Shown here one piece after another: positions 4,717 through 44,932 of a stretch of DNA of 64,000 bases. Numbering within the stretch: position 1 is the stretch's first letter; the number at the start of each line of letters is the position of its first letter. The position numbers and the translations under genes were made by a program. The notes under the pieces were generated by a model. That model saw only the letters and a program-made list of their open reading frames with translations, was not told the DNA's origin and did not search any database. Source of the DNA: a bacterium (GTDB lineage: Bacteria; Patescibacteriota; Minisyncoccia; UBA6257; 02-FULL-45-10c); the NCBI GenBank assembly GCA_030700025.1, contig JAUYKI010000017.1, positions 2,748 to 66,747 of the forward strand. Direction: 5' to 3'.

Positions 4717-5745
4717 ATGGAAAAAGGAACTTTATTTGAGATTAGCTGGAGCAGCCTGTGGCGCATAGTGGTAATGCTGGTTTTGGGCAGCATTGTTTTT
4801 TTTGCTAAAGACGTTTTGGTGGCGGTGGCTTTGGCGATAGTCATTTCCTCGGCCTTTGATCCGCTGGTGAGCGCTTTGGAGCGCTGGCGGATTCCCCGGG
4901 TTTTGGGCACTCTTGGCATTTTTATTTTGATTATTGTCGGTTTAGCAATGGTGCTTTACACTATTGTTCCTTTGGCGCTTTCGGAGTTAAACGTTTTGTT
5001 GAATACTTTAACCGAAATTGACGCTCCGTTTTTGGGATTGGAACAATTATCCGCGGTAGTTAAAACCCTTAACGAGGGAATCGGCCGGCTGGCGAATCTT
5101 TTAATCAGCGGCAGCGCTTCTATATTAGATGCCGTATCTCGGTTTTTGGGCGGAATTGCTTTAGTAATCTCGGTTTTTATCCTTTCCTTCTATTTAACTA
5201 TTGACCGGGACGGCATAGAGAACTTCTTAAAGGCAATTTTGCCGCCTAGTTACGAAGATCAGGTTTTAGATATTTATTTCCGGGTCCGGAGGAAGATTGG
5301 CCGCTGGCTGCAGGGCCAGATTTTCTTGAGCTTGAGCATCGGTTTTAGCACCTTTATAGCCCTTTGGAGTTTGGGAATTAAATACAGCCTGATCCTGGGA
5401 ATCTTGGCTGGTATGTTAGAAATTGTTCCGTTTGTGGGCCCGATTTTCAGCGGCGCCATAGCTTTCTTGATTGCCCTTTCGCAGTCATTCTCGTCGGCAA
5501 TTTACGTTCTGATACTTTTTATCGTGATTCAGCAATTAGAAGGGCATTTATTGGTACCGACTTTTATGCGTTTGGCCACCGGCTTGAATCCGGCTTTAAT
5601 TCTGATCGCCCTTTTAATCGGAAGCCAGCTTTTGGGATTTATCGGATTGATTTTGGCGGTTCCAGCCGCGGTGCTGGCGCAAGAAGTTATTAATTTCTGG
5701 TCTTTGTCTAAAAACAAAAAGAAGGCAGCGATGCTAAACGTTTAG
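4717..5745 (+). CDS. AI-2E family transporter (PerM/UPF0118)
   Basis: 342 aa and polytopic, with a ...EIVPFVGPI...QQLEGHLLVP... pattern typical of the family. Confidence 0.8.
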   Translation: MEKGTLFEISWSSLWRIVVMLVLGSIVFFAKDVLVAVALAIVISSAFDPLVSALERWRIPRVLGTLGIFILIIVGLAMVLYTIVPLALSELNVLLNTLTEIDAPFLGLEQLSAVVKTLNEGIGRLANLLISGSASILDAVSRFLGGIALVISVFILSFYLTIDRDGIENFLKAILPPSYEDQVLDIYFRVRRKIGRWLQGQIFLSLSIGFSTFIALWSLGIKYSLILGILAGMLEIVPFVGPIFSGAIAFLIALSQSFSSAIYVLILFIVIQQLEGHLLVPTFMRLATGLNPALILIALLIGSQLLGFIGLILAVPAAVLAQEVINFWSLSKNKKKAAMLNV

Positions 5746-5773
5746 AATCTAGAATCTAATATCTAGAATAAGA

Positions 5774-5796
5774 ATCGCCAAAACGGCGATTTTTTA
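5774..5796 (+). terminator. Intrinsic terminator
   Basis: ATCGCC-aaaac-GGCGAT followed by TTTTT. Confidence 0.6.
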
Positions 5797-5803
5797 TTAT
5801 TTA

Positions 5804-6092
5804 GAACCTATCTCAATAATATTTCCTAACCGCGTTGCTAAGATAAATGCCAGATTTCAAGGCACGACGACGAAATTATGGCCATAGCCACATTGAGGAG
5901 GAGTAACGAAGAAATATGGCATTTAGACCGCAACCCAAAGGGACATAGTAAATTTTGTTCATAACTTCGTTGCTCGGGCTCGACGTAGCCAAGCTACAGT
6001 CTCGCCCCTGCCTGCCGGTAGGCAGGCTCGCGCCTTGTTCTGAATCAAAATTTACTTATATCGCGTTTGGAATTATTATTGGGATAGGTTCT
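5804..6092 (+). ncRNA. Candidate structured element, ~280-nt family, copy 1 (RNA versus DNA repeat unresolved)
   Basis: 24-nt terminal arms pair (5804-5827 with 6069-6092, 2 mismatches). P2 pairs 5844-5858 with 5911-5925 (14/15). P3 pairs 5947-5957 with 6046-6056 (11/11). Shares the core TGAGGAGGAGTAACGAAG and CTTCGTTGCTCG with the copies at 27767 and 44559. Confidence 0.5.
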
Positions 6093-6093
6093 T

Positions 6094-7722
6094 ATGTCTA
6101 AGTTCTATATCACTACCTCTATTGCTTATGTTAATGCCGCCCCGCATATTGGTTTTGCGCTGGAAGCGGTTCAGGCGGACGTAGTTGCCCGCTGGCATAA
6201 GCAGGAGGAAGTCTTCTTTTTAACCGGCACAGACGAGCACGGAGCGAAAATTGCCAGGGCCGCGGCCGCCTCGCGCGGCGAGGCGCCGCCGAAAGCGAGC
6301 CTCGCCACTGGCGGGAGCCTCGCCCCAAAGGGGCGGGAAGCCGACAATAAGTTAATAAAAGAATTTGTTGATCAGCAAGCAGAAAAGTTTAAAGCGTTAA
6401 AAAGCGCGCTTAATTTATCCTGGGACAACTTCATCCGGACTTCCGACCAAAAAGTTCATTGGCCGGTGGCGCAAGAAGTCTGGAAGCGGATTGCGGAGGC
6501 GGGCGATTTATATAAAAAAACTTATCAGGGGCTTTATTGCGTCGGCCACGAAGCGTTTGTTACCCAGAAAGACTTAGTGGCGGAAACCCCGACGCTAGAG
6601 GGTCGGGGCTCCGACCGAAGCGCCGGAGATGCCTTAGTATGTAAAGATCATAAAAAAGCCCCGGAGCTTATAGAAGAAGAAAACTGGTTTTTTAAATTAT
6701 CAAAATATACGAAAGATATTGAATTGCGAATAAAGAATGATGAATTACGGATTATTCCGGAAGGCCGGAAAAATGAGGTTTTGGGCTTGCTTAAGGACGA
6801 TCCGGAAGATGGTTCGGCAAGCTCACCACAAGACGTGAGTTTCTCCCGGCCGAGCAAAGACTTAACCTGGGGCGTTCCGGTGCCGGGCGATGATTCGCAA
6901 ACCATGTATGTCTGGGCAGATGCCCTCACGAACTATATTAGCGGTTATGGCGGAGTTAAAAACTGGGAAAAGCATCCGGCGGATATCCATTTTATCGGTA
7001 AAGATATTTTACGTTTTCACGCGATCATTTGGCCGGCGATGCTTTTATCGGCAAAATTGCCCTTGCCGAAAACTATTTTTGTGCACGGCCATATTTTGTC
7101 TGACGGGCAGAAGATGTCTAAATCCTTAGGCAATGTGGTGGATCCGTTTGAATTAGTAAAAAAGTATGGTTCGGCAAGCTCATCACAAGCTGGCACAGAT
7201 GCAGTTCGGTATTTTCTTTTGCGGGAAATTCCGTCGGCGGAAGACGGCGATTTTAGCTATGAAAAATTTACCCAGCGGTATAACGCGGATTTGGCAAACG
7301 GATTAGGTAATTTTGCGGCCCGGGTTTTAACCCTTGCGAGTAATTACAGCGAATATTTTACAATTCACGCTAACCCCCAGAACGTTCACGAGGTGGTTAA
7401 TGACAAAATTAAGGAAACCCAATTATTAGCTAATAAGAAAATCACGGATTTTAAACTTAACGAAGCACTAGAAATAATTTGGAGCTTAATCCATTTTGGG
7501 GATCAGTATATAAATGAAAAAAAACCATGGGAGCGAAAGGATGAAAAAATAATAGAGGCAAATGGCGTAGCGATTCACAGTTCGGTAGCAATTTTAAATA
7601 ACGTGGCGATTTTACTCCAACCATTTTTGCCGGACACCGCGGATAAAATTACCAAGAGCATCGTTTGGGAAGAAGGTAGGCTGGAAATCCAAAAGACCGA
7701 AAATTTATTTCCGAGATTGTAA
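6094..7722 (+). CDS. metG: Methionine--tRNA ligase
   Basis: N-terminus YITTSIAYVNAAPHIGF, a KMSKS motif (KMSKSLGN) and WADALTNY. Carries several in-frame repeat-derived insertions (see findings). Confidence 0.9.
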   Translation: MSKFYITTSIAYVNAAPHIGFALEAVQADVVARWHKQEEVFFLTGTDEHGAKIARAAAASRGEAPPKASLATGGSLAPKGREADNKLIKEFVDQQAEKFKALKSALNLSWDNFIRTSDQKVHWPVAQEVWKRIAEAGDLYKKTYQGLYCVGHEAFVTQKDLVAETPTLEGRGSDRSAGDALVCKDHKKAPELIEEENWFFKLSKYTKDIELRIKNDELRIIPEGRKNEVLGLLKDDPEDGSASSPQDVSFSRPSKDLTWGVPVPGDDSQTMYVWADALTNYISGYGGVKNWEKHPADIHFIGKDILRFHAIIWPAMLLSAKLPLPKTIFVHGHILSDGQKMSKSLGNVVDPFELVKKYGSASSSQAGTDAVRYFLLREIPSAEDGDFSYEKFTQRYNADLANGLGNFAARVLTLASNYSEYFTIHANPQNVHEVVNDKIKETQLLANKKITDFKLNEALEIIWSLIHFGDQYINEKKPWERKDEKIIEANGVAIHSSVAILNNVAILLQPFLPDTADKITKSIVWEEGRLEIQKTENLFPRL

Positions 7723-7736
7723 TAACCCCGGTACTA

Positions 7737-8410
7737 AAAAGAAAAATCCCCCGACATGCGTCAGGGGAAATGATGATGGGCAACAGTTGCTTTGCAGTGT
7801 TATGAGGTATTAGCCTCTAGCCATAAAGTGGCTGTCTGTTCTGCGTTGCTTCTGTTGCCGTTGACTCGGAATTTTGTCAGGGCGGGTGGACACCGGGTTA
7901 GCTCGCGCGGCTGAAAGAAAGTCAGCCTTCTATTCCCGGCGCCACCTTTGGCAGTGAGATGGTTGTAACACCCCACCGGCCAGCAGCCTGCCCCGACTTT
8001 ACGTCGGGGTCCCCTCCGGCTTGTGACCGGAGGATGATTCCAAATAGCAGTTGCCTTTCGCAGATTATGAGCCTATTGGGCTCTGACCAAAAAAGTGGTC
8101 TTCTTTCTGTTAGCTTCTGTTATTGGATGATTCCGCCCCGACGCTTTGTAAGCCGTCGGGGATACTGCTACTTGGTGAGCCGGTCCTAAGGTAGCGAATC
8201 TTTGGTTTCCTACCCACCAAGATGATGCTTCTTATTGTAGTTAAGGAACGAAAGTAGCGCGATGTGACTCTGCAACTGTCCAGTTTGTGTTGCATCGGAG
8301 CGGAATACCCGGGTGGACGGCCCCAAGGCTCCTACGGCTCTTTGCCTGATCTCGGGTTCTTCCCGACGTCAACCAAGCATTGTAAGAACCAAAGCCAGCA
8401 TCGCTAAGTA
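7737..8410 (-). ncRNA. Candidate large structured RNA (unclassified); boundaries approximate
   Basis: ORF-poor 880-bp gap with many perfect helices. Two helices carry G-U pairs only when read on the minus strand. A minus-strand terminator sits at 7748-7767 with a T-run, and a TTGACA-N17-TATCCT match at 8439-8411 (-). Confidence 0.45.
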
Positions 8411-8603
8411 AGGATAGCACACCTCAAACCCTTTGTCAATAGCGGGTTTGCAATCTCTAAATTCTAATCCCTAATCTCTAAATAAACTCGAAGCTCAAAT
8501 ATCCGGATTTTTAAATTTTATTTTTGAGATTGGACATTGGAAATTGTTTAGAAATTAGGGTTTAGGAATTAGAAATTTATCAAAACATGTTATTATTAAT
8601 TCC

Positions 8604-9984: not shown

Positions 9985-11694
9985 ATGAATTACAACCAGA
10001 CCGTGCCGGAGCTTTTTGCCCAGACAGTTCAGCGATATCCGAATAAAGACGCGATTCTTTTCCATGGCCGGTTTACTTACTCGGATTTGGATAAGATGTC
10101 AGATGAATTTGCCAAAGTGCTTTTGATGAACGGCATTTACAAGGGCGACCGGGTTTCGTTACTGTTGCCCAATAGCGTACATTTTGACGTGGCCTTTTTA
10201 GGCATTTTGAAAATCGGAGCGGTAGTGTCGGCGATGAATCCGTTGGTCAGCACTCCGGAAATTCTGGAGATGGCGAAACAAGCGAAGCCCACAATGATCA
10301 TTACCTTGGATATCGCGCCTTTTTACGCGCATAACCAGGCGATTTACAAGAGCTTGAAGCCCAACCAGATTATGATGGTTTGCGATTTGCGGGATTATTT
10401 CTCGCCGATTTTAAAGATTCTTTATACGCTGAAAACTTGGCGGGATAAACACTTCTTGGGAATCAGCTCCGAAGATGGCAGGCGGTCGGTATATTCGTGG
10501 GGCTATTGGAAGCGCGACAGTTTATCACAGAAATATTTGTTGCCTGACAATCCCACAATGGCAGCATTAACGAAAAAGAATTGTCCGACTCCGGACGATT
10601 TGGCTGTTTTGCAATCTACCGGCGGAACGACTGGAATTCCGAAGTTTGCTATGTTGAGCCATCGGAATATCATCAGTAACACTTTGCAGGCCTTGGCGCA
10701 TGTTAATGCCACGGGCCAGCTGGTTACCAAGGATTCTATTTTCTTGGGCGTTTTGCCGTTTTTCCATGTTTTCGGGCTTTCGGTTTGCCTGAACTTGGCT
10801 TTTGCGGTTGGCGCGACTGTGGTGATTATGCCGAAGTTTGACAGCGCGGAAGCGCTAAAGCTGATCAAGAAATACGGAGTGGATATTTTTCCGGCGATTA
10901 CCCGGATGTACGCGGCTTTGGTCGCGTTCGGATCTAAGGATTCGGAAAAATGCCGGACAATGTGCGCTAGCTTGAGGCTGTGCTTTTCCGGAGCCGGAGC
11001 TTTGGATCTGGCGGTAAAAGCCCAATGGGAAAAAATGACCGGAAAAGAAATCACCGAAGGCTACGGCTTGTCCGAAGCGTCGCCGATCGTTTCTTTTAAT
11101 CCGATTGGTGAAGGAAAAACCGGAAGCATGGGCACCTTGGTTCCGGATACGGAATTGAAATTAGTTCACCAGGATACCGGCGAACCGGTTGGCTGGGATG
11201 AATCTGGTGAATTGTGGATCCGTGGCCCGCAAGTGATGATGGGCTATTGGCAGAATGAAGAAGAAACGCGAATGGCGCTCCGCGAAGGCGGATGGCTGGC
11301 TACCGGCGATATCGTCCGATATCACGACGGATATTTATGGTTCGTGGACCGGAAAAAGGACATGGTGAAGATTAACGGAGAGAATGTTTATCCCAAGTCC
11401 ATTGAAGATGTAATCCGTACCTGTCCGATAGTGGCTGATGTGGCGGTGTTTGGCGTGCCAGATAAAGAAACCGGCGAACAGCTGGTAGCGTGCGTAGTTT
11501 TAAACGATAAAGCAGAGGGCGCGCTGAAATACACCGATTCGGCCTTGACTGACGCGATACACGGCCATTGCCGCAATAACCATCTGGCGGGAATCAAGAT
11601 TCCCAAGCGAGTGGTATCGGTTCCCGAAATTCCCAAAACGGTTGTAGGAAAAGTTCTGAAGAGAGTATTGAAAGAAAACCTTTTAAAAAACTAA
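9985..11694 (+). CDS. AMP-dependent acyl-CoA synthetase/ligase (FadD-like)
   Basis: Motifs TGGTTGIPK, GYGLSEASP and TGDIV...DRKKDMVKINGENVYP. GGGAGG Shine-Dalgarno upstream. Confidence 0.85.
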   Translation: MNYNQTVPELFAQTVQRYPNKDAILFHGRFTYSDLDKMSDEFAKVLLMNGIYKGDRVSLLLPNSVHFDVAFLGILKIGAVVSAMNPLVSTPEILEMAKQAKPTMIITLDIAPFYAHNQAIYKSLKPNQIMMVCDLRDYFSPILKILYTLKTWRDKHFLGISSEDGRRSVYSWGYWKRDSLSQKYLLPDNPTMAALTKKNCPTPDDLAVLQSTGGTTGIPKFAMLSHRNIISNTLQALAHVNATGQLVTKDSIFLGVLPFFHVFGLSVCLNLAFAVGATVVIMPKFDSAEALKLIKKYGVDIFPAITRMYAALVAFGSKDSEKCRTMCASLRLCFSGAGALDLAVKAQWEKMTGKEITEGYGLSEASPIVSFNPIGEGKTGSMGTLVPDTELKLVHQDTGEPVGWDESGELWIRGPQVMMGYWQNEEETRMALREGGWLATGDIVRYHDGYLWFVDRKKDMVKINGENVYPKSIEDVIRTCPIVADVAVFGVPDKETGEQLVACVVLNDKAEGALKYTDSALTDAIHGHCRNNHLAGIKIPKRVVSVPEIPKTVVGKVLKRVLKENLLKN

Positions 11695-11715: not shown

Positions 11716-11740
11716 AACCCCGATAAATGTCGGGGTTTTT
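11716..11740 (+). terminator. Intrinsic terminator
   Basis: CCCCGA-taaatg-TCGGGG followed by TTTTT. Confidence 0.6.
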
Positions 11741-11745
11741 AATTT

Positions 11746-11891
11746 AGAAAGAGTGTTTTATTCTCCCGCTACTGTTCAAACTCCCGGCGAGAGTTTTCAC
11801 TGGGTCTCGGGCTTCGCTCTTTCCGCCTTTGGCGGAAAACCCTGCCCGCTCAGCCCTCAGCCCGCGCTACGGAGAATAAAACACTCTTTCT
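11746..11891 (+). repeat. GC-rich inverted-repeat-bounded element, copy E1
   Basis: AGAAAGAGTGTTTTATTCTCC and GGAGAATAAAACACTCTTTCT form perfect 21-nt arms. The interior is homologous to the reverse complement of 36623-36810. Confidence 0.7.
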
Positions 11892-11904: not shown

Positions 11905-11934
11905 ATAAAAAAACCACGGCTTAACGCACCGTGG
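11905..11934 (-). terminator. Intrinsic terminator (minus strand)
   Basis: CCACGG/CCGTGG hairpin followed on the minus strand by a T-run. Confidence 0.55.
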
Positions 11935-11996
11935 TATTGATTAGCGCCCTTGCTAATGCCCGCAAGAGTAAAGGGTTATGCCGAAACGGGCCCTGA

Positions 11997-12440: not shown

Positions 12441-14966
12441 ATGAAGTACGACTTCAAAAAGATAGAAAAAAAGTGGCAGAAGACTTGGAGTAAGAATGAC
12501 TACGCCGTCTGGCACGCGGAGGAAAAGCCCAGGGCAAGGGAAATGTATGTTTTGGACATGTTTCCGTATCCTTCCGGCGAAGGTTTGCATGTGGGCCATG
12601 TGGAGGGCTACACTGCCTCGGATATTTTAAGCCGTTATTATCGGATGCGCGGTTTTAATGTTTTGCACCCAATGGGCTGGGACGCTTTCGGTTTGCCCGC
12701 GGAAAATTACGCGATTAAAAAGAAGGTCCATCCCGCGGAAGTAGTGAAGCAAAATGTTAAGCGGTTCAAAGAACAGCTGAACAAGCTGGGCTTCAGCTAT
12801 GACTGGCAAAGGGAAGTGAATACCACCGACCCGGAATATTATAAGTGGACTCAATGGATTTTCCTCCAGCTTTTTGAAAAGGGCTTGGCTTATGAAGCGG
12901 AAGTGCCGGTGAATTGGTGCCCGAAAGATAAAACGGTTTTAGCGAACGAGGAAGTGATTGACGGCTGTTGTGAACGCTGTAGCGAACAGGTGGAAAGGAA
13001 AAATCTCAAGCAATGGGTTTTAAAAATCACGGCTTACGCGGACCGGCTTTTAAAGGACTTGGAAGATTTGGACTGGCCGGACAAAGTGAAAGAAATGCAG
13101 AAAAATTGGATCGGCCGTTCCGAGGGCGCGGAAATTGATTTTCCAGTGGCTAATTCCACTTTAAAAATAAAAGTCTTCACCACCCGGCCGGACACGATTC
13201 CGGGAGTTACTTATTTAGTGCTGGCGCCGGAACATGCGCTGATTTCCCAGCTGGACGCGAGAATTACCAATCCGAACGCGGTTAAGGAATATCTGGAAAC
13301 CGCCAGGCATAAATCGGAACGGGAAAGAATCGCCGATATCAGGCAAAAAACCGGAGTGGAATTGCGGGGCATCAAGGCCGTGAATCCTTTAACCGGAAAA
13401 GAAATACCGGTTTGGACTTCGGATTACGTTTTATCCGGCTACGGCACCGGAGCGATTATGGCGGTTCCGGCGCATGACCAGCGGGATTTTGAATTTGCCA
13501 AGAATTTCGAATTGCCGATTGTCCAGGTCATTTCCCTTACCGGACGGGAAGAGGATTTAGCGTCGGCGTACGGAGGCGACGGCATTATGATTAACGCCGG
13601 CGAAGAATTAAACGGCTTGGGCAATCAGTTAGCGAAAGAAACAATTATTGAAAAATTGGAAGCTCATAAAAAGGTAAATTATAAGCTTCGGGACTGGGTA
13701 TTTTCCCGCCAGCGTTATTGGGGAGAACCTATACCGCTTATTTTTTGTGAACAGTGTAAAAAACAAGCGGTAAATTCCAAATTCCAAACTCCAAATTCCA
13801 AACATAATGAATTTAACGAAGGCGAGATTTTAAATCCGGGCTGGGTTCCGGTGCCGGAAGAAGATTTGCCGGTAGAACTGCCGAAAGTTAAAAACTATGA
13901 GCCGACCGGTTCGGCGGAGTCTCCGCTAGCAGGGATTGATAAGTGGGTGAATGTAAAATGTCCGCAATGCGGCGAGCCGGCGAAAAGAGAAACCAACACT
14001 ATGCCGCAATGGGCGGGCTCTTGCTGGTATTATCTCGCGTATATTTTAAGTGAAAAGTTAAAAGTTAAAAGTGACAAAGATTTTTGGGATAAAAAATCTT
14101 TGGATTATTGGCTGCCGGTGGATGTTTATATCGGCGGAGTAGAGCACGCCGTACTCCATCTTTTATATGCTCGTTTTTGGCATAAGTTTTTGCATGATAT
14201 TGAAGCTGTTTCTACGAAAGAGCCGTTTCAGCGGTTGGTGAATCAGGGCTTGATTTTGGGACCGGATAATCAAAAGATGTCCAAATCCCGCGGGAACGTG
14301 GTTAATCCGGATGAGCTGGTAGAAAAGTTCGGAGCGGATTCTTTGCGGTTATATGAAATGTTTATGGGGCCGTTGGAAGACGCTAAACCGTGGCAGCCGG
14401 ACGGAATTGTCGGCGTGCATCGGTTTCTTAATCGTGTATGGAATCTAGTAGGCGAAAAGCGAAAAACGAAAAGCGAAAAGACGGACGATAAATTAGAAAG
14501 ATTATTACACAAGACGATTAAAAAAGTTACTGAAGACGTAGAGGGGCTTAAATTTAATACCGCTATTTCCAGTTTAATGATTTTAGTGAATGAAATGGAG
14601 AAGGCGGAGTCAATAGTTAATAGTCAATTGTTATTAGTTACTAAGTTGCTGTTTCCTTTTGCTCCGCATATTGCCCAAGAGCTTTGGAGCCAGCTTGGCC
14701 CTTCGGCAAGTTCAGGACAAGCAAGCTTGCTGGATCATGAAGATTGGCCGAAATATGACGAGAAATTGATTACCGAAGAAGACTTTGAGCTTTTGATTCA
14801 GGTTAACGGAAAATTGCGCGATAAGGTTATGGTTTCAAAAAATACTACGCAAGAAGAAGCGGAGAAGTTGGTTTTGGGAATGGAAAAGATTAAAGAGTTT
14901 GTCGGCAAAGCTAAGCCTAAAAAAATAATTTTTGTGCCAGGCCGGTTAATTAATATTGTGGTTTAG
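12441..14966 (+). CDS. leuS: Leucine--tRNA ligase
   Basis: HVGHVEGYTASD (HIGH-type motif), KMSKSRGN and the CP1 editing region. 841 aa. Confidence 0.93.
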   Translation: MKYDFKKIEKKWQKTWSKNDYAVWHAEEKPRAREMYVLDMFPYPSGEGLHVGHVEGYTASDILSRYYRMRGFNVLHPMGWDAFGLPAENYAIKKKVHPAEVVKQNVKRFKEQLNKLGFSYDWQREVNTTDPEYYKWTQWIFLQLFEKGLAYEAEVPVNWCPKDKTVLANEEVIDGCCERCSEQVERKNLKQWVLKITAYADRLLKDLEDLDWPDKVKEMQKNWIGRSEGAEIDFPVANSTLKIKVFTTRPDTIPGVTYLVLAPEHALISQLDARITNPNAVKEYLETARHKSERERIADIRQKTGVELRGIKAVNPLTGKEIPVWTSDYVLSGYGTGAIMAVPAHDQRDFEFAKNFELPIVQVISLTGREEDLASAYGGDGIMINAGEELNGLGNQLAKETIIEKLEAHKKVNYKLRDWVFSRQRYWGEPIPLIFCEQCKKQAVNSKFQTPNSKHNEFNEGEILNPGWVPVPEEDLPVELPKVKNYEPTGSAESPLAGIDKWVNVKCPQCGEPAKRETNTMPQWAGSCWYYLAYILSEKLKVKSDKDFWDKKSLDYWLPVDVYIGGVEHAVLHLLYARFWHKFLHDIEAVSTKEPFQRLVNQGLILGPDNQKMSKSRGNVVNPDELVEKFGADSLRLYEMFMGPLEDAKPWQPDGIVGVHRFLNRVWNLVGEKRKTKSEKTDDKLERLLHKTIKKVTEDVEGLKFNTAISSLMILVNEMEKAESIVNSQLLLVTKLLFPFAPHIAQELWSQLGPSASSGQASLLDHEDWPKYDEKLITEEDFELLIQVNGKLRDKVMVSKNTTQEEAEKLVLGMEKIKEFVGKAKPKKIIFVPGRLINIVV

Positions 14967-15028: not shown

Positions 15029-15164
15029 CCCGGTATTACAACTTTGATCGTAAAAGTTTCAGCGAGTTATTTAAGAAAAACTATGAAATTACCTAATTTA
15101 TTAATTATAAAGTCGACAAAGCGCTTAATTTTAATTAAGCGCCAATCAAAGTTGTAATACCGGG
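15029..15164. repeat. Inverted-repeat-bounded intergenic cassette abutting the glmS start
   Basis: CCCGGTATTACAACTTTGAT (15029-15048) is the perfect reverse complement of 15145-15164. TATG flanks both outer junctions. Confidence 0.75.
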
Positions 15165-17630: not shown

Positions 17631-18701
17631 TTAGATGCCGAGATAATCCAAGAATTTTCCAAGTTGGGCGTTTTTGGGGCTATGGCTGGTTTTTTCGTTT
17701 GGCGGATTAATAACCATAGATCCGCGAATCAGCTGGGTGTCCAGAAAAGCATCTTTCAGTTTTTTAAAAACTCCGGTTAATTTTTTGGTTTGGGATGTAA
17801 GGAAAAAACTGCTATTAGCAGAACTCCACAAAGCATAAGTATCAAAGCCTAGCGCTTTGGCGGCGGTAAATCCTAGAGGAATTTGATTGCGTTGTTTGAG
17901 CCGTCCGGTTTTTGGATCTTGCGTAGTTTCCACGATGTTTAATAATACTTTTCCCAATTCGGCGCTTTCCGGCTTGGCTCCGCCTTCTGCCATGCGTTTT
18001 TTGGCGGCTTCAATTCCGTTTAAAGATATTTGGACCAATCCTTTATTTTGAAGGCAGATATCCCATAAATTAACCTTTTTACCGCCGGATTCTTTTACCG
18101 TGATTTGTTTGGCCTCTTCTTCGGCAAATGGCTGGCGCGGATCCCGGCCCTCCTGGAAGAATTTGGCAATTAAGCTTAGTGGCAGGGCTTTATAGATTCC
18201 ATAAGGAGTCCGCCACCAGTCATTTTTTAAAAACTCTTCGTCAATCGGATAATCTAAATTATCTATTTGGGTTACAAACTCGGAAAAATTATCCAGCCAC
18301 TTTTCCTTTTTCAGCATTCCGGCTTTAGTCAGGGATTCATAAACAATTGCGGTGGCGGAAGTGGGCTTGCCTTGTTCCGGACCGTGATGGTCAAAGAAAA
18401 TACTGCCGTCTTCTTCCATGGTTAATTCCGGCTTGCCCCCGGTATCAATATGCACCGCGCCGGCCAGGTCTTTTCCTTTTGGCACGAAAGTTACCATTTT
18501 ATAATTAATGCCCGCTAAATCCATTAAAAAGACTCCGCCCATCGCGTCTAAGTCGGGCCGGAGCTTTAATTGGCTTTTTCCGCCTTCGTGGCGGAAATCA
18601 CCGTGGATAACCAGCTGGTCAAAGCCGGCCTTCAGGGTTTCCGCTACCCGTTCTAATGTTTTTTGCTCTGATTTTTCCGGATTGGCTTTAAATTGTTCCA
18701 T
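17631..18701 (-). CDS. DHH-superfamily phosphoesterase-like protein (divergent)
   Basis: Ordered motifs PDLDAMGG, HIDTGG and FFDHHG resemble DHH motifs I-III. No clear DHHA1 GGGH motif. Confidence 0.5.
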   Translation of the reverse strand: MEQFKANPEKSEQKTLERVAETLKAGFDQLVIHGDFRHEGGKSQLKLRPDLDAMGGVFLMDLAGINYKMVTFVPKGKDLAGAVHIDTGGKPELTMEEDGSIFFDHHGPEQGKPTSATAIVYESLTKAGMLKKEKWLDNFSEFVTQIDNLDYPIDEEFLKNDWWRTPYGIYKALPLSLIAKFFQEGRDPRQPFAEEEAKQITVKESGGKKVNLWDICLQNKGLVQISLNGIEAAKKRMAEGGAKPESAELGKVLLNIVETTQDPKTGRLKQRNQIPLGFTAAKALGFDTYALWSSANSSFFLTSQTKKLTGVFKKLKDAFLDTQLIRGSMVINPPNEKTSHSPKNAQLGKFLDYLGI

Positions 18702-18833
18702 CCCTCACCTTTAAAGAACTGCGACGCTATCGCAATTCTTGATTTTAATTAAATGACTTTTTATTGTTGAAAACATAGTTTTGAGTATTAACTTGGCTTC
18801 GGACGCATTATTGGTTCTTTAAGGGTGAGGGAT
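18700..18833. repeat. Inverted-repeat-bounded cassette abutting the start codon of the minus-strand gene
   Basis: ATCCCTCACCTTTAAAGAAC (18700-18719) pairs with GTTCTTTAAGGGTGAGGGAT (18814-18833), 19/20. Read on the minus strand: GTGAGGG-ATG. Confidence 0.7.
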
Positions 18834-27073: not shown

Positions 27074-27147
27074 ATCCCGCTTAGAAGCAGGCCGCCCCAA
27101 GGTGGCTGTAGCCACTCGCTAAAAGCGAGGGCGGCTTCTAACGGGAT
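27074..27147. repeat. Compact hairpin member of the CCCGTTAGA family
   Basis: ATCCCGcTTAGAAGC..GCCGCCC pairs with GGGCGGCTTCTAACGGGAT. Two small apical hairpins. Starts right after the stop codon. Confidence 0.65.
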
Positions 27148-27766: not shown

Positions 27767-28041
27767 GGGGTCTGTCATAAAATTACTGGCTTAATTTGGA
27801 GGCCTGGATTTGAGACAGGTACGAGACGCGACGACGACAACGTGTCTGAATGAAGGACACGTTGAGGAGGAGTAACGAAGTAGCTGGCCAAAGATAGGCC
27901 TCCCCGAAGGGCCAAAGCATTTTATGGGCTGCGACTGCGTCACTCGTCGTCAATGTAGCTAAAGCTACAATCTCCTCCTCGTTTCTTGTCTCGCTCCAAA
28001 AATGCTATGGTAAATAAGTCATTAATTTTATGACAGACCCC
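27767..28041 (+). ncRNA. Candidate structured element, ~280-nt family, copy 3
   Basis: P1 pairs 27767-27785 with 28023-28041 (19/19, sequence unrelated to copies 1 and 2). P2 pairs 27798-27805 with 27896-27903. P3 pairs 27916-27923 with 27999-28006. Hairpins at 27839-27863 and 27954-27969. Core TGAGGAGGAGTAACGAAG at 27863-27880. Confidence 0.5.
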
Positions 28042-28957: not shown

Positions 28958-30130
28958 TTGAAAACTGATAAAAAGGCGGTTACGATGGAACCGAAAAAGG
29001 GCTTGCGTGATGTTCCGGCCGGACAGACCCGGCTTTGCTTGTTGGATGAAGCCAACAGCGAACTTTATTATTGCGGTTATTCTATCAGGGATTTAGTTGA
29101 GCATTATCCCTATGAAGCCGTGGCTTATTTGATGCTTCACGGCGAATTGCCTTCCGAGTCGGAATTAAAAATTTTCACCCGTCGCCTGGTGAATAACGCA
29201 TGGAATATGCCTCAAGTGGTAGTTAAGAGTTTGGAGTTAAAAACTCCATTCACTGATGCCCATCCGATGGATAAATTGTCACTGATAATCCGGGCTGACG
29301 GCAATACTCACGGCATTCCGTTTTCTACGCCATCGTTAGAGAATAATTTGGACTTAGCGAAATCTTTGATTGCCCGGTTGCCTTTAATGGTTGCTTTGCT
29401 GGGCGGCGCTAGCCGGAATTATTTTGACTATTTTGATCCAGACCGCACGCTGATGGAAAATTTTGTAGATTCTTTGCGGATCCCGAACGAAGGCGGTTTG
29501 GCAACGAAATTAATGAATGTCGCGTTTATTCTTTACGCGGAACATGAATTCAACGCCGGGTCTTTCGCGGTTCGGGTGGCAGCCAGCGCGCACACCGATA
29601 TTTATTCCGCGGTTTTGGGAGGATTAGGAACTTTGCGCGGTACTCGCCACGGCGGAGCCAATGAAGAAGTAATGAAGAAGATGCTGGAAATCGGAACACC
29701 GGAAAAAACGCGCGAATATTGCGACCGATTTTTGTCTCAGCCGGGAGCGCGCTTGCCGGGATTTGGCCACGCGGTTTATACCATCGGCGATCCGCGGGTA
29801 GCGGTTCTCCGCCCGCTGGTAAAAGATTTGTCGGTCCGAAAGAACGATATGCGCTGGTATGAAATTGCTGTCGCGCTGGAAGAATATATGGCGGAGCGTT
29901 CTCGGGGAAAGTCTAAGCCCTTGCCGGCTAACACTGACCTTTGGACGGCGCCGTTATATCACTTGCTGGGCATCCCGATTCGTCTTTTCACCCCGCTTTT
30001 CGCCGCCTCCCGGGTTTCCGGCTGGTGCGGACATTATTTGGAAGTGCGGCATGTTTACAACGAACCGATTCTTCGGCCGCGCGCCGAATATGTCGGATCC
30101 GCTCCTCGGAAAGTAATCCCTCACTCTTGA
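28958..30130 (+). CDS. Citrate synthase family protein (citrate/2-methylcitrate synthase-like)
   Basis: GFGHAVYTIGDPR active-site region. Start uncertain (TTG 28958 or ATG 28985). The last 4 codons lie in a repeat arm. Confidence 0.85.
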   Translation: MKTDKKAVTMEPKKGLRDVPAGQTRLCLLDEANSELYYCGYSIRDLVEHYPYEAVAYLMLHGELPSESELKIFTRRLVNNAWNMPQVVVKSLELKTPFTDAHPMDKLSLIIRADGNTHGIPFSTPSLENNLDLAKSLIARLPLMVALLGGASRNYFDYFDPDRTLMENFVDSLRIPNEGGLATKLMNVAFILYAEHEFNAGSFAVRVAASAHTDIYSAVLGGLGTLRGTRHGGANEEVMKKMLEIGTPEKTREYCDRFLSQPGARLPGFGHAVYTIGDPRVAVLRPLVKDLSVRKNDMRWYEIAVALEEYMAERSRGKSKPLPANTDLWTAPLYHLLGIPIRLFTPLFAASRVSGWCGHYLEVRHVYNEPILRPRAEYVGSAPRKVIPHS

Positions 30131-30191
30131 AAGAATTAACCTCGCTTATAGCGAGGTTTTTTATAGCAACGTTATTTCAAAAGTGAGGGAT
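30116..30191. repeat. Inverted-repeat cassette, CCCTCAC family
   Basis: ATCCCTCACTCTTGAAA pairs with TTTCAAAAGTGAGGGAT (16/17). The interior holds a CCTCGC/GCGAGG terminator with a T-run. Confidence 0.7.
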
Positions 30192-30269
30192 TTATTTTGA
30201 AGTTGATTTTTATGGAATTTAGCATTAAACTATTCTCGTTCTTTAATAACGAGGTATGGAGGATGAAAC

Positions 30270-35819: not shown

Positions 35820-36566
35820 ATGGCTGCTAATGACAGCGTCAGAGTAAGGGTGACGGATTTAGTCACCAAGCTGTTGGAGTACGTTCGGGACGGAAAACGG
35901 GACGCTAATGACGTGGCCCGGGTTCTCCAGGTCGTAAAAGACGACCCGAATTTCATCCACCAGCTGTTTCCGGAAGAAACCGGTAGGCCGCAAGTACCCG
36001 CGCGTAATCGGAGAGCCAGGCATTTGCTGGACCAGTGGTACGACATCTATGTCAGAGAGTTTGGAATGAAATTAGATCTTGAGGAATTTCGAGCTATTAA
36101 AATTCCGCCTCGTAGATCCGAATTTGACCGTCTGATTGTCGTGCTGAAGGGACTGACTCTTGGTCAGATTGTCCAAGTCCTTCAAAAACATATGAAGATT
36201 GATATTCGCGCTGGCCATCTCAATTCCATCACTTCCGTCCGAAACACCAGTCAAACTTATGCCATCTGGGTCCGCGACTACCAGGAAGCCGACAAAGAGT
36301 TCGAGAATATGTCAGCTGAGTACTTAATCGGAAAGCAAATTAAGGGTATTACCTTGGAAGAGTATTTTCTCTTTGAACTTAAGTATTACTTGGAGTTAGG
36401 CCTGCACCTGGATATTAAGAATGTTACTCGTTGCGATGGTTCGCGCAATTCGAATGGCAATGTTCTGATCGCGAGCTGGGATCCGGACGATGGCGAGGTC
36501 ATCGTCTATTGGTACGATCCGTTGGATGCAGGTTCTGGTGTGCGTTCCCGTCAGGTTATTGCTTAA
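35820..36566 (+). CDS. Hypothetical protein
   Basis: 248-aa ORF with a strong Shine-Dalgarno. No family recognised. Confidence 0.65.
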   Translation: MAANDSVRVRVTDLVTKLLEYVRDGKRDANDVARVLQVVKDDPNFIHQLFPEETGRPQVPARNRRARHLLDQWYDIYVREFGMKLDLEEFRAIKIPPRRSEFDRLIVVLKGLTLGQIVQVLQKHMKIDIRAGHLNSITSVRNTSQTYAIWVRDYQEADKEFENMSAEYLIGKQIKGITLEEYFLFELKYYLELGLHLDIKNVTRCDGSRNSNGNVLIASWDPDDGEVIVYWYDPLDAGSGVRSRQVIA

Positions 36567-36622
36567 AAATTTTCGCCTCGGCTTTTTGCCGGGGCTTTTT
36601 ATTTCTACGAAAGCAGTTTTTG

Positions 36623-36810
36623 AGAAAAGAAACTTTATTCTCCGTAGCGCGGGCTGAGCCTGCCTGCCGGTAGGCAGGGGCTGAGCGGGCAGGGTGTCCC
36701 GCGAAGCGGGACGAGCGAAGCCCGAGACCCAGTGAAAACTTCCCTCACTCTTGTACAAAAGTGAGGGACTGGGAGTTTGAACGGTAGCGGGAGAATAAAG
36801 TTTCTTTTCT
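36623..36810 (-). repeat. GC-rich inverted-repeat-bounded element, copy E2 (inverted relative to E1)
   Basis: AGAAAAGAAACTTTATTCTCC and GGAGAATAAAGTTTCTTTTCT form perfect arms. Homologous to E1, with two nested hairpin insertions (36659-36678, 36741-36768). Its end overlaps the comFC stop codon. Confidence 0.7.
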
Positions 36811-37507
36811 AGCGTGTTTTAGCAATTACCAACGCGATTATTTTTTTGGCGCCGGCGGATTTTAAAGTTTTAGCGGCTTCGCGGATAGTGGCTCCGGAAG
36901 TGTGAACGTCGTCAACGAGAAGGATATTTTTTCCCACTATCAGTTCTGGGTAATTAACCGCGAAGCAGTTAATCACATTTTGCGCCCGTTCTTCATGATT
37001 CTTGGCAAGCGACTGGGTTTTAGTATTTTTAATTCTTTGAATCGGCTCCGTTAAATCTAATTTATAAAAATCAGCAACAATTTTCGCAATCAATTTTGCC
37101 TGATTAAATCCGCGTTCTTTTTCCCGATCTTCGTGAAGCGGGATTGGAACCACGGTAAAATTTCTAATATCTAAATCCAAATTTCTAAGATACGAGACTA
37201 GAATTTCGCCTAATGGCCTTTGAAGCCGCTGCCATTTTTTAAATTTAAATAATTTCAGCAAAGTCCGGATGGAATCGTTATCGTAATTAGTGGCGGCGGC
37301 CAAAAGATAAGGAGAATCTTTATGGCAGACCTTTTTATTATCCGCCAGGCGCAATCCGCAAACCGGGCAAAAAAGCGAAGTATTGAGGCGGATGCCGGCC
37401 CAGCACTCCGGGCAAAGATCGCCTTCAGCGTTTTTTTGGCAGTTTAAGCAGAGCGGAGGAAAGAGGATGTCCCACAGCCAGGTTTTCATTTTTTGGAGAT
37501 AGCTCAT
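36809..37507 (-). CDS. comFC: ComF family protein (double zinc ribbon plus phosphoribosyltransferase domain)
   Basis: CLNC...CPEC...CPVCG zinc ribbons and a PRTase motif ILLVDDVHTSGAT. ATG 37507 preferred over TTG 37543. Confidence 0.85.
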   Translation of the reverse strand: MSYLQKMKTWLWDILFPPLCLNCQKNAEGDLCPECWAGIRLNTSLFCPVCGLRLADNKKVCHKDSPYLLAAATNYDNDSIRTLLKLFKFKKWQRLQRPLGEILVSYLRNLDLDIRNFTVVPIPLHEDREKERGFNQAKLIAKIVADFYKLDLTEPIQRIKNTKTQSLAKNHEERAQNVINCFAVNYPELIVGKNILLVDDVHTSGATIREAAKTLKSAGAKKIIALVIAKTR

Positions 37508-37750
37508 GTCTGTTATACTAATAATAGATTTAGAATAAGGCAATGGATTCCAATAACTAATTTCTAATATCTAATTTCTAATAAAATGACCGAAATCACA
37601 AACCACAAGCACCAAATCACAAACAAGCACCAATGACCAAAATCATAAATTTAAAACCCGTTTGGAATTTCTATTATTTGAATTTAGAATTTGTTTGTAA
37701 TTTGAGATTTGTAATTTGGAATTTTATCAGAAATTGTAAATTGTAAATTT

Positions 37751-39378: not shown

Positions 39379-39504
39379 ATCCCACACATAACAAAGACTA
39401 TAGGATATTTAAGCTAATAACTATGATAGTAGAATTAAAATGTCACATTAAATTAAAAGGCAAGGATTTGCGGAAAACTTCGCAGTCTTTGTTATGTGTG
39501 GGAT
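39379..39504. repeat. Inverted-repeat-bounded intergenic cassette abutting the pilO start
   Basis: ATCCCACACATAACAAAGACT (39379-39399) is the perfect 21-nt reverse complement of 39484-39504. ATGAA occurs at both outer junctions. Confidence 0.75.
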
Positions 39505-40398: not shown

Positions 40399-40518
40399 AT
40401 CCCGTTAGAGATAGGCCGTCAAAGGCGGCCGTAGCTCGTCCGTTCTAATGGCGCTCAGAGTTTAAAATAAAAACAAAGGTTAATAATATAAATCTAATTT
40501 AGTTATCTCTAACGGGAT
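40399..40518. repeat. Inverted-repeat-bounded intergenic cassette (CCCGTTAGA family)
   Basis: ATCCCGTTAGAGATA (40399-40413) is the perfect reverse complement of 40504-40518. ATGGAT occurs at both outer junctions. Confidence 0.75.
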
Positions 40519-44557: not shown

Positions 44558-44558
44558 T

Positions 44559-44830
44559 GAACCTATCCCAATAATAATCCTCAAACGCGTTGCTAGTATA
44601 AATTGAAAATTTCTAGGCCTGCCGAGGAGCTTGTGGCCATAGCCACAGTGAGGAGGCAGAACAACGAAATTTTCAATTTAGACAGCAACCCCAAGAGGGA
44701 TACAGCCAATTTTATCCATAACGTCGTTGCTCGTCGAAGATATAGCTTACGCTATAAATCTTCTCCTCGCGTCTAGTTCTGAATAAAATTGGCTAATATC
44801 GCGTTATGGGATTATTATTGGGATAGGTTC
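44559..44830 (+). ncRNA. Candidate structured element, ~280-nt family, copy 2 (best preserved)
   Basis: P1 22/22, P2 15/15, P3 12/12, two hairpins and conserved cores. See the finding for coordinates. Confidence 0.55.
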
Positions 44831-44932
44831 TATGTTACACTTATTAAAGGTCGGAAATAAGATGTAATACCAATATACGAATTATTCGTATCATTAGTAT
44901 GAATTAGTATATTAGTATCTCATTATAAATAT

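Follow-up and report, generated by a model that had tools for sequence, protein, structure and literature searches.

Two inverted copies of a GC-rich element, here called E1 and E2, lie in the 64,000-nucleotide stretch of DNA that was analysed (contig JAUYKI010000017.1 of assembly GCA_030700025.1), referred to below as the window. On balance, we assign them to a small family of palindromic repeats, restricted to one lineage, that are non-coding and non-autonomous and are of the REPIN, MITE (miniature inverted-repeat transposable element), ERIC or Correia kind, in a Parcubacteria-like genome of the Patescibacteria (candidate phyla radiation, CPR). This reading is based on the dispersed copies, the empty orthologous sites, the invariant ends, the missing coding capacity and promoter, and the nested insertions, as well as on sites that lie behind stop codons or terminators and between convergent genes. 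E most probably represents a family that is new but of a kind already known, namely structured intergenic repeats similar to REPINs, MITEs and ERIC, and literature searches found no such elements described for the CPR phylum.

Copies of the element and their stems

E1 aligns over its full length with the reverse complement of E2 at 82% column identity, and the two have identical blocks of 16+12, 28, 17 and 25 nucleotides (nt). The shared 28-mer and 17-mer occur at no other site of the window, where shuffled sequences give expectations of 0.00 and 0.17. A sequence-only reading of the same DNA had proposed two inverted homologous copies of a GC-rich element; the alignment and the shared blocks bear out the homology, and the composition agrees as well, with a GC content of 62-64% in the core against 45% in the window and 29-33% in the arms. 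Both copies are predicted to fold far more stably than shuffled sequences (minimum free energy z-score of -9.9 for E2 and -6.3 for E1). The unit of the family is ~146 nt long and consists of an AT-rich closing duplex of 17-24 bp, P1, around a GC-rich asymmetric core of two or three hairpins. The stem-proximal ends are invariant, TTTATTCTCC-CGCTAC ... GCGCTAC-GGAGAATAAA. The positions of the element and its parts are listed in Table 1.

Table 1. Positions of E1, E2, their structural parts and the adjacent terminators in the window.
Feature	Position	Strand	Basis
E1, complete copy, 146 nt	11746..11891	+	alignment with E2 and E3; covariance model R1, 178 bits; fold -62.6 kcal/mol, z -6.3
E1 closing stem P1, 5' arm AGAAAGAGTGTTTTATTCTCC	11746..11766	+	21/21 complementary to 11871-11891
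CGCTAC direct repeat, on the inner side of the 5' arm; reads GTAGCG on the opposite strand	11767..11772	+	at both positions in E1, E2 and E3
Helix P2' (CCCGG ... CTGGG); E2 holds hairpin H2 in its loop	11783..11804	+	RNAalifold consensus
E1 inner hairpin P3b, TTCCGCC-TTT-GGCGGAA	11821..11837	+	preserved despite two-sided changes relative to E2 and E3
C-rich block CCCTGCCCGCTCAGCCC	11840..11856	+	first 12 nt the same in E1, E2 and E3
CGCTAC second copy, abutting the 3' arm	11865..11870	+	sequence
E1 closing stem P1, 3' arm GGAGAATAAAACACTCTTTCT	11871..11891	+	complementarity to 5' arm
Intrinsic terminator that ends the AMP-binding-enzyme gene, 8 nt ahead of E1	11716..11737	+	context
Intrinsic terminator of convergent minus-strand small genes, downstream of E1	11913..11935	-	context
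E2, complete copy with two nested hairpins, 188 nt	36623..36810	-	alignment; covariance model R1, 100.9 bits
E2 P1, 5' arm AGAAAAGAAACTTTATTCTCC; begins with the AG of the comFC stop codon TAG	36790..36810	-	sequence
E2 nested hairpin H2, TCCCTCACTTTTG TA CAAGAGTGAGGGA, 28 nt, in place of CGAG of E1 and E3	36741..36768	-	arms are those of the F repeats
E2 inner hairpin P3b, GTCCCGC-TTC-GCGGGAC	36696..36712	-	matches E3 except in the loop
E2 nested GC palindrome H1, 20 nt, plus strand CCTGCCTGCCGGTAGGCAGG	36659..36678	-	identical 20-mer at 6007-6026
E2 P1, 3' arm	36623..36643	-	21/21 complementary
Intrinsic terminator of convergent gene 35820-36566, beyond the E2 3' end	36575..36595	+	context

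The syntenic loci of the closest homologues of the leucyl-tRNA synthetase (LeuRS) and of ComFC were compared with the window. The best GTDB species-representative match of the LeuRS of the window is 67% identical, and the closest named relatives are metagenome-assembled genomes (MAGs) of the Parcubacteria type. A third copy, E3, was found in a related MAG, GCA_964646555.1 (locus L085, 5844-5997, minus strand), whose LeuRS is 78% identical. The stem-proximal ends of E3, TTTATTCTCCCGCTAC ... GCGCTACGGAGAATAAA, are identical to those of E1 and E2; it also retains the 12-nt block CCCTGCCCGCTC and an inner hairpin of the E2 type (GTCCCGC-TAC-GCGGGAC), while its closing stem is a third version, GGAAACC.../...GGTTTCC, perfect over 17 bp. 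In all, blocks of 12-17 nt are identical between the two genomes, whose other intergenic DNA is unalignable. The locus of E3 differs from those of E1 and E2, as it lies ~30 nt past the terminator of a large unannotated non-coding RNA (ncRNA) between MetRS and TatD, convergent with MetRS.

None of the three copies is found at the corresponding site of the relatives. The site of E1, the spacer between the gene of an AMP-binding enzyme and that of LeuRS, is syntenic and empty in five loci (L085, L086, L087, L098 and L099), and the site of E2 after comFC is empty in four (L094, L095, L096 and L097). The site of E3 is empty in the window, even though the ncRNA and its terminator are conserved there. 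As the orthologous sites are empty for all three copies, this pattern is the signature of a dispersed, probably mobile repeat.

The closing stem varies in sequence and keeps its pairing. Arm positions 6-11 differ between E1 and E2 at 6/6 sites (GAGTGT versus AGAAAC), and each difference is offset on the opposite arm, so that the pairing is 21/21 in both copies; that the 21-nt terminal arms differ and are each self-complementary had been recognised from the sequence before. Across the three copies, 8 of the 21 pairs of P1 are changed on both sides, a number matched by 0/500 column shuffles, and when the partner is moved by 1-3 columns only 0-3 two-sided changes are seen. Within the delimited stems, the P1 pairs are Watson-Crick in 59/59 cases. 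In the inner hairpin P3b, two pairs are changed on both sides (TTCCGCC/GGCGGAA versus (G)TCCCGC/GCGGGA(C)), which is the compensatory swap described earlier, and in helix P2' a G.U pair in E1 stands where E2 and E3 have A-U. Taking P1, its CGC/GCG extension, P2' and P3b of the three copies together, the 105 stem cells comprise 101 Watson-Crick pairs, one G.U pair and three mismatches. The mismatches are confined to E3, where they lie on the outer margins of P1 and P2'. The covariation of P1 and P3b is strong, on three sequences only and with both strands foldable.

The arms are also homologous across loci, as AGAAA together with TTTATTCTCC is common to E1 and E2, and GAAAC(C)TTTATTCTCC is common to E2 and E3. 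Since these loci are not orthologous, the arms belong to the element and travel with the core, and they are not target DNA.

E2 exceeds E1 by 42 nt, which are owed to two nested hairpins, H2 and H1, corresponding to the two modules that the sequence-only reading had seen in this copy. H1 is located between two CTCAGCC repeats, and its 20-mer recurs identically at 6007-6026, single G.T variant included, inserted in an unrelated palindromic element of ~290 nt in the window, called G; it is absent from the three other copies of G (1/4 has the insertion). The arms of H2 are those of two longer inverted repeats of the window, called F, at 30110-30197 and 63103-63249, and one asymmetric mismatch is common to all three. 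The loop of H2 is 2 nt long, compared with interiors of 36 and 99 nt in the F repeats. H1 and H2 are thus independent repeats of this genome that have entered hairpin loops of E2. The window holds 14 perfect inverted repeats (arms of 14 nt or more, within 400 nt), compared with 0.15 in first-order Markov simulations, so that the genome around E abounds in palindromic repeats inserted into one another.

Genomic sites, transcription and coding capacity

The window is an ordinary chromosomal region of the Patescibacteria, with genes for aminoacyl-tRNA synthetases, type IV pilus genes, comFC, a ligase and tRNAs. E1 starts 52 nt past the stop codon of the AMP-binding-enzyme gene (9985-11694). E2 starts within the TAG stop of comFC (36809-37543, minus strand) and its far end is separated by 57 nt from the stop of the convergent gene 35820-36566. 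The two copies are accordingly placed just past gene 3' ends, with E2 overlapping the comFC stop, as first proposed. An alignment of ComFC orthologues identifies ...AKTR* as the native C-terminus, so E2 left the gene untruncated, and a truncation of comFC is ruled out. E1, E2 and E3 are each flanked by convergent transcription units and share the orientation of the nearer one (3/3), and two of them, E1 and E3, come shortly after intrinsic terminators. These are the least harmful positions, between convergent units and after stop codons or terminators. The neighbours (AMP-binding enzyme, comFC and the large ncRNA) are functionally unrelated.

No promoter-like site was found near E1. Two weak promoter-like sites lie upstream of E2, both inside the conserved comFC coding stretch AGAKKIIALV. 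E2 is almost certainly transcribed, because no terminator separates it from comFC. Regarding termination, AAUUUUUAU follows P1 of E1, E2 and E3 have no U-tract, and a terminator scan flags only H2 within E2. A passive stabiliser or terminator effect on read-through transcripts is plausible.

With Rfam 15, whose families include raiA, 6S, Y RNA and ribozymes, only tRNAs were found in the whole window at the gathering score. At E<=10 around both copies, nothing significant covers the bodies of E1 and E2, and the best local matches are the flanking terminators. A tRNA-like T-arm in GTTCAAACTCCC was rejected, as no complementary 5' strand is visible on inspection and neither ARAGORN nor Rfam finds a tRNA there. 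The initial interpretation therefore holds in part: the repeated structured element, its compensatory changes, the nested hairpins and the location at gene 3' ends stand, whereas its leaning towards a small RNA (sRNA), or a dedicated terminator or stabiliser RNA gene, is not upheld, given the lack of an Rfam family and of a promoter-like site near E1, the upstream terminators and the empty orthologous sites.

A coding function is ruled out. The insertions and deletions between E1 and E2 (+24, -2 and +20 nt) leave no common reading frame, and a concatenated six-frame translation, searched against 5.8 billion proteins for open reading frames (ORFs) called in related elements, gave no homologue.

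The copy number was estimated by a fuzzy search for paired ends and nhmmer --max over 1.55 Mb, and by a covariance model over 1.53 Mb, of mostly CPR sequence. The resulting density is two copies per 64 kb window and one in ~137 kb of the closest relatives. Exact-word scans with 20- and 22-mers of the core gave 0 matches in a collection of genome contigs and 3 in a collection of metagenome contigs, all of them chance matches inside a GC-rich ORF. The two invariant ends gave 6 chance matches and 0 matches in a collection of viral contigs, and no match of E was found in phage and plasmid collections.

Alternative explanations and related systems

As in MITEs, E is a short non-coding unit (146-188 nt) with perfect inverted termini of 17-21 bp, dispersed copies and insertion polymorphism (three loci in two genomes). 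We suggest that the element spreads, or has spread, as DNA, which would be aided by an enzyme encoded elsewhere that recognises the folded or paired ends. It can be speculated that this follows the single-strand route of Y1 transposases (IS200/RAYT-like), the sole hint being the direct CGCTAC/GTAG tags. The perfect arms would be kept at the DNA level, by a need for the hairpin in mobilisation, by quasi-palindrome template-switch correction, which is an established mechanism, or by both; arms that are Watson-Crick only fit such maintenance. A read-through transcript of the upstream gene would fold very stably, with a long perfect duplex closing a GC-rich multi-hairpin structure, and this structure might, by analogy with REP, ERIC and Correia elements (PMC2649163), block 3' exonucleases or be a target of an RNase III-type enzyme, altering the stability of the upstream mRNA. 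Such an effect would be a by-product and not the reason why the element exists.

However, several observations weigh against a family of mobile repeats. The census found E1, E2 and E3 only, and three copies are far below the typical size of a REP (repetitive extragenic palindromic) or MITE family. No transposase, RAYT/Y1_Tnp, integrase or recombinase was found among the 47 ORFs of the window searched against Pfam, nor an autonomous element with the same ends in the compared loci. Target duplications are inconsistent (AATTT at E1, TC at E3 and nothing clear at E2, the empty sites being too diverged for a reconstruction), and the outermost tips of P1 are the variable part of the arms, while in classical terminal-inverted-repeat transposons the tips are the most conserved part. 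The differences between E1 and E2 in P1 are transition-type double changes in 5/6 cases; at least five of six would occur by chance with a probability of ~0.02 if the arms were unrelated sequence (binomial estimate). Finally, the unpaired core is 92% identical between E1 and E2 and the stems only 76%, and a 12-nt unpaired C-rich block is invariant in both genomes. Between the genomes the order flips, with 63-66% in the unpaired core and 69-79% in the stems.

The few copies, the lack of a transposase and of a consistent target duplication, the variable tips and the conserved unpaired core make a functional RNA at gene 3' ends a serious rival, if a doubtful one in our estimate. E would then be a 3'-UTR (untranslated region) or other cis element, or a small RNA processed from read-through, with stems held by selection on RNA folding. 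The invariant C-rich single strands, CCCUGCCCGCUC, would be binding sites for a protein or for G-rich targets similar to Shine-Dalgarno sequences, and the closing stem would be a determinant of processing or stability. The compensatory changes are highly non-random, and transition-type changes are the path expected for compensation at the RNA level via G.U. The conserved unpaired core and the invariant C-rich block would suit a sequence-specific RNA or protein-binding function as well. The identical blocks between genomes with otherwise unalignable intergenic DNA, the co-orientation of all copies with the adjacent upstream unit and the almost certain transcription of E2 also speak for an RNA. 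However, the sense strand folds about as well as the antisense strand, and the positions at which G.U or A.C would tell the strands apart are too few to decide: two favour the sense strand (G.U pairs, one in P2' and one in H2) and one the antisense strand (an A.C in H1 on the sense strand). The core helix P3 (CGGGC/GCCCG), predicted for E1 and E2, is not preserved in E3, where GCCCG can pair downstream. An RNA gene is also difficult to reconcile with the missing Rfam family, the missing promoter-like site near E1, the terminators ahead of E1 and E3, adjacent genes unrelated in function, and an element that is retained at no orthologous site in four to five relatives per site. REPINs, moreover, show the same type of compensation. 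The RNA element and the mobile repeat are not mutually exclusive.

It is quite improbable that only the GC-rich core bounded by CGCTAC is mobile and that it landed in the loop of a ~48-nt AT-rich host hairpin (AGAAA..TTTATTCTCC-CGCTAC-GGAGAATAAA..TTTCT), from which the arms would derive. In each of the three copies, the direct repeat CGCTAC does stand precisely at the two inner feet of P1, and the same genome contains other hairpins with insertions in their loops (H2 compared with the F interiors, and H1 in E2 and in G1). Y1 (IS200/IS605) transposases insert 3' of a short tag without target duplication, and this mode would suit such an origin too. However, neither the window nor 1.5 Mb of relatives contains an empty TTTATTCTCC...GGAGAATAAA hairpin; together with the homology of the arms between non-orthologous loci, this makes a core-only mobile unit unlikely. 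Still less probable, and very much so, is a protein-binding or recombination site that acts at the DNA level as a folded single strand or cruciform, such as an attC-like cassette, a recombinase site or a partition site. The combination of conserved ends with a variable palindromic part of the stem, the exclusively Watson-Crick P1 and the location at gene 3' ends would agree with it. On inspection of the sequence, however, no R''/R' core sites (RYYYAAC/GTTRRRY) are present at the ends, which read AGAAAG...CTTTCT, the conserved centre is the reverse of the situation in attC, the copies are solitary and not arrayed, and no integrase or recombinase was found among the ORFs of the window. Sites of the attC type are rejected. 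Lastly, simple decayed duplicates, or a chance similarity, with no maintained structure have only the small copy number in their favour and are hardly credible. Chance is excluded by the counts of shared words and inverted repeats, and decay would break the stems, yet these remain almost entirely Watson-Crick despite 8 two-sided changes in P1 and 2 in P3b. The sequence-only reading had itself put forward decayed duplicates without covariation as the contrary case, and the stem-pair tally and the shuffle test overturn it.

We compared the repeat family that we favour with known systems. REPINs and tagged REPs are found in Pseudomonas, E. coli and others and are mobilised by RAYT (REP-associated tyrosine transposase) enzymes of the Y1 type. 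E resembles them in being non-coding and extragenic, in forming one long hairpin of ~100-150 nt, in conservation near the ends with a variable part that is kept paired, and in new elements found in or next to old ones. In REPINs, two-sided compensatory changes of the hairpin are common and insertions into existing REPINs occur (PMC3116915). Tagged REPs are found 3' of genes, in spacers between unidirectional as well as convergent ORFs, with an unpaired GTAG at the foot of the stem (PMC3733652). The GTAGCG at both feet of P1, on the antisense strand of E, can be compared with this tag. Since REPINs show both compensatory changes and nested insertions, covariation alone cannot separate a mobile repeat from an RNA gene. 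However, the core of E is asymmetric and not a doublet of inverted REPs, its tags are direct repeats while those of REPINs are inverted, it has 3 copies against tens to hundreds, no RAYT was seen among the ORFs of the window, and the CPR is not among the host phyla reported for REPINs.

The Correia elements of Neisseria (also CREE or NEMIS) are mobile between strains, non-coding and 100-155 bp long, with terminal inverted repeats and a conserved core; they are co-transcribed with their neighbours, and the duplex of the inverted repeats binds RNase III and is cut or protected (PMC2649163). E likewise is non-coding with terminal inverted repeats and a conserved core. However, the two have no sequence similarity, and Correia elements have ends conserved to the tip, a TA duplication and an IHF site and can create promoters, none of which was seen in E.

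ERIC/IRU of the enterobacteria and RUP/BOX of pneumococcus are imperfect palindromes of ~100-130 nt in transcribed intergenic regions, and longer variants stem from insertions at fixed internal sites. These insertions resemble the nested H1 and H2 of E2. The sequence and the host phyla differ from those of E, and ERIC is far more numerous and is often conserved at orthologous sites. The raiA motif RNA (RF03072) is located downstream of comFC in Firmicutes and Actinobacteria, and E2 is similarly a structured non-coding sequence of ~200 nt directly 3' of comFC. This motif can nevertheless be excluded, as there is no Rfam match even at E<=10 over 36540-36900; E also follows unrelated genes, and four related comFC loci have no element. 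The attC sites of integrons are, like E, imperfect palindromes at gene 3' ends, with a stem that in part conserves its structure better than its sequence, but E has no core sites, array or integrase, and its centre is conserved where that of attC varies.

The genomes of the CPR are ~1 Mb in size and usually called streamlined. A structured, apparently mobile repeat with sub-modules means that their intergenic DNA is more dynamic than assumed, and E also offers a marker of variation between strains and a candidate RNA structure for gene 3' ends. In such genomes, long perfect stems with compensatory changes should not count as evidence for an RNA gene without a check of presence and absence. The palindromic and ncRNA features that surround E in the window may outweigh it in interest.

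Other repeats and non-coding features of the window

The G family comprises 5803-6092, 44558-44831 and 27767-28041 in the window and L099 2672-2942 (minus strand), the last of which occupies the spacer between the AMP-binding-enzyme and LeuRS genes, where the window has E1. The copies are ~270-290 nt long with terminal stems of 19-38 nt and a conserved core of GACGACGA-hairpin-TTGAGGAGGAGTAACGAAG ... CGTTGCTCGTCG-GTAGCnnnGCTAC-CTCCTCG. Their hairpins covary and a pseudoknot is possible; two of the copies in the window extend precisely to a start codon, one to that of MetRS and the other to that of a pilin gene. The G family has no match in Rfam at E<=1. The arms of the two F repeats are ATCCCTCACTCTTGAA / TTCAAAAGTGAGGGAT. 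Two unrelated genes, citrate synthase (28958-30130) and the ORF 62483-63121, take their final codons and stop (…NPHS*) from the 5' arm, and the interior of the first copy contains the terminator of the citrate synthase gene.

It is tempting, if rather unlikely in our view, to see E, H1, the arms of H2 and F, and the G elements (~280 nt) as one undescribed system of modular hairpin elements in the CPR. Such modules would spread into the loops or centres of other hairpins (other elements, possibly also ORFs), driven by an unrecognised enzyme that acts on single-stranded DNA, with arms kept perfect by template-switch correction. If true, this would make E a single layer in a 'Russian-doll' ecology of repeats, within genomes that are deemed streamlined and poor in mobile DNA.

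The perfect 20-nt palindrome of H1 and of 6007-6026, CCTGCCTGCCGGCAGGCAGG, is found nearly identical at six other loci, L006 19914, L010 441, L016 1867, L056 3210, L087 20050 and L098 21245, in distantly related hosts that are mostly CPR. In L010 its flanks resemble coding sequence, and in L087 and L098 it adjoins a tRNA-like sequence followed by (CAGG)n. Elsewhere in the CPR, L008 11620-11770 and L016 1760-1925 are GC-rich multi-hairpin elements with flanking AT-rich perfect inverted repeats. The element in L008 holds a module similar to E, TCTCGGGC..GTCCCGC-TGA-GCGGGAC. These two suggest a wider class of modular elements.

A further group of repeats may be called start-codon clamps. Here a perfect inverted repeat, ATCCCGTTAGA(N) ... 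(N')TCTAACGGGAT, extends over an entire intergenic spacer of ~100 nt. They are located at 1851-1959, 40399-40518, 62364-62484 and L005 12690-12793, and further 3' arms are present at 60-70 and 27137-27147. The 5' arm begins at or just past the upstream stop, and the last letters of the 3' arm, GGGATG(G), provide the start codon of the following gene. In the window, the 11-mer of the clamps occurs 8 times, with 1.1 expected. The clamps might mask the start site and thereby link translation to the upstream gene, or they could be another repeat family. More perfect inverted repeats of long range, with arms of 20-21 nt, lie at 39379-39504, 15029-15164, 18700-18833 and L084 6859-6996. Their sequences differ and the geometry is that of the clamps, with a 3' arm that ends at the downstream ATG (a pilus-operon gene, glmS and the minus-strand ORF 17631-18701).

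The large conserved ncRNA candidate between MetRS and TatD covers ~7760-8420 (minus strand, ~650 nt) in the window and ~6040-6510 (minus strand, ~470 nt) in L085. It has a promoter of the TTGACA/TATCCT type and an intrinsic terminator, no match in Rfam at E<=0.1, and a module, …AACAGAAGCTAACAGAAAGA.GACCACTTTT…, that is duplicated in the copy of the window. A second non-coding stretch from promoter to terminator, ~700 nt long, is found in L099 at 5600-6320.

Runs of GC-rich hairpins are also seen inside coding sequence, at 6234-6347 and 6577-6633 (in the MetRS ORF, 6094-7722) and at 60543-60599, with up to 90% GC per 40 nt. They encode low-complexity stretches, for example AAAASRGEAPPKASLATGGSLAPKGREA, and resemble in-frame hairpin insertions. 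The LeuRS gene (12441-14966) has an insertion of six residues, PSASSG (in …LGPSASSGQASLL…), at 14700-14720, which is absent from five close orthologues. A separate insert of ~27 residues in the zinc-binding region of LeuRS is common only to the closest relative.

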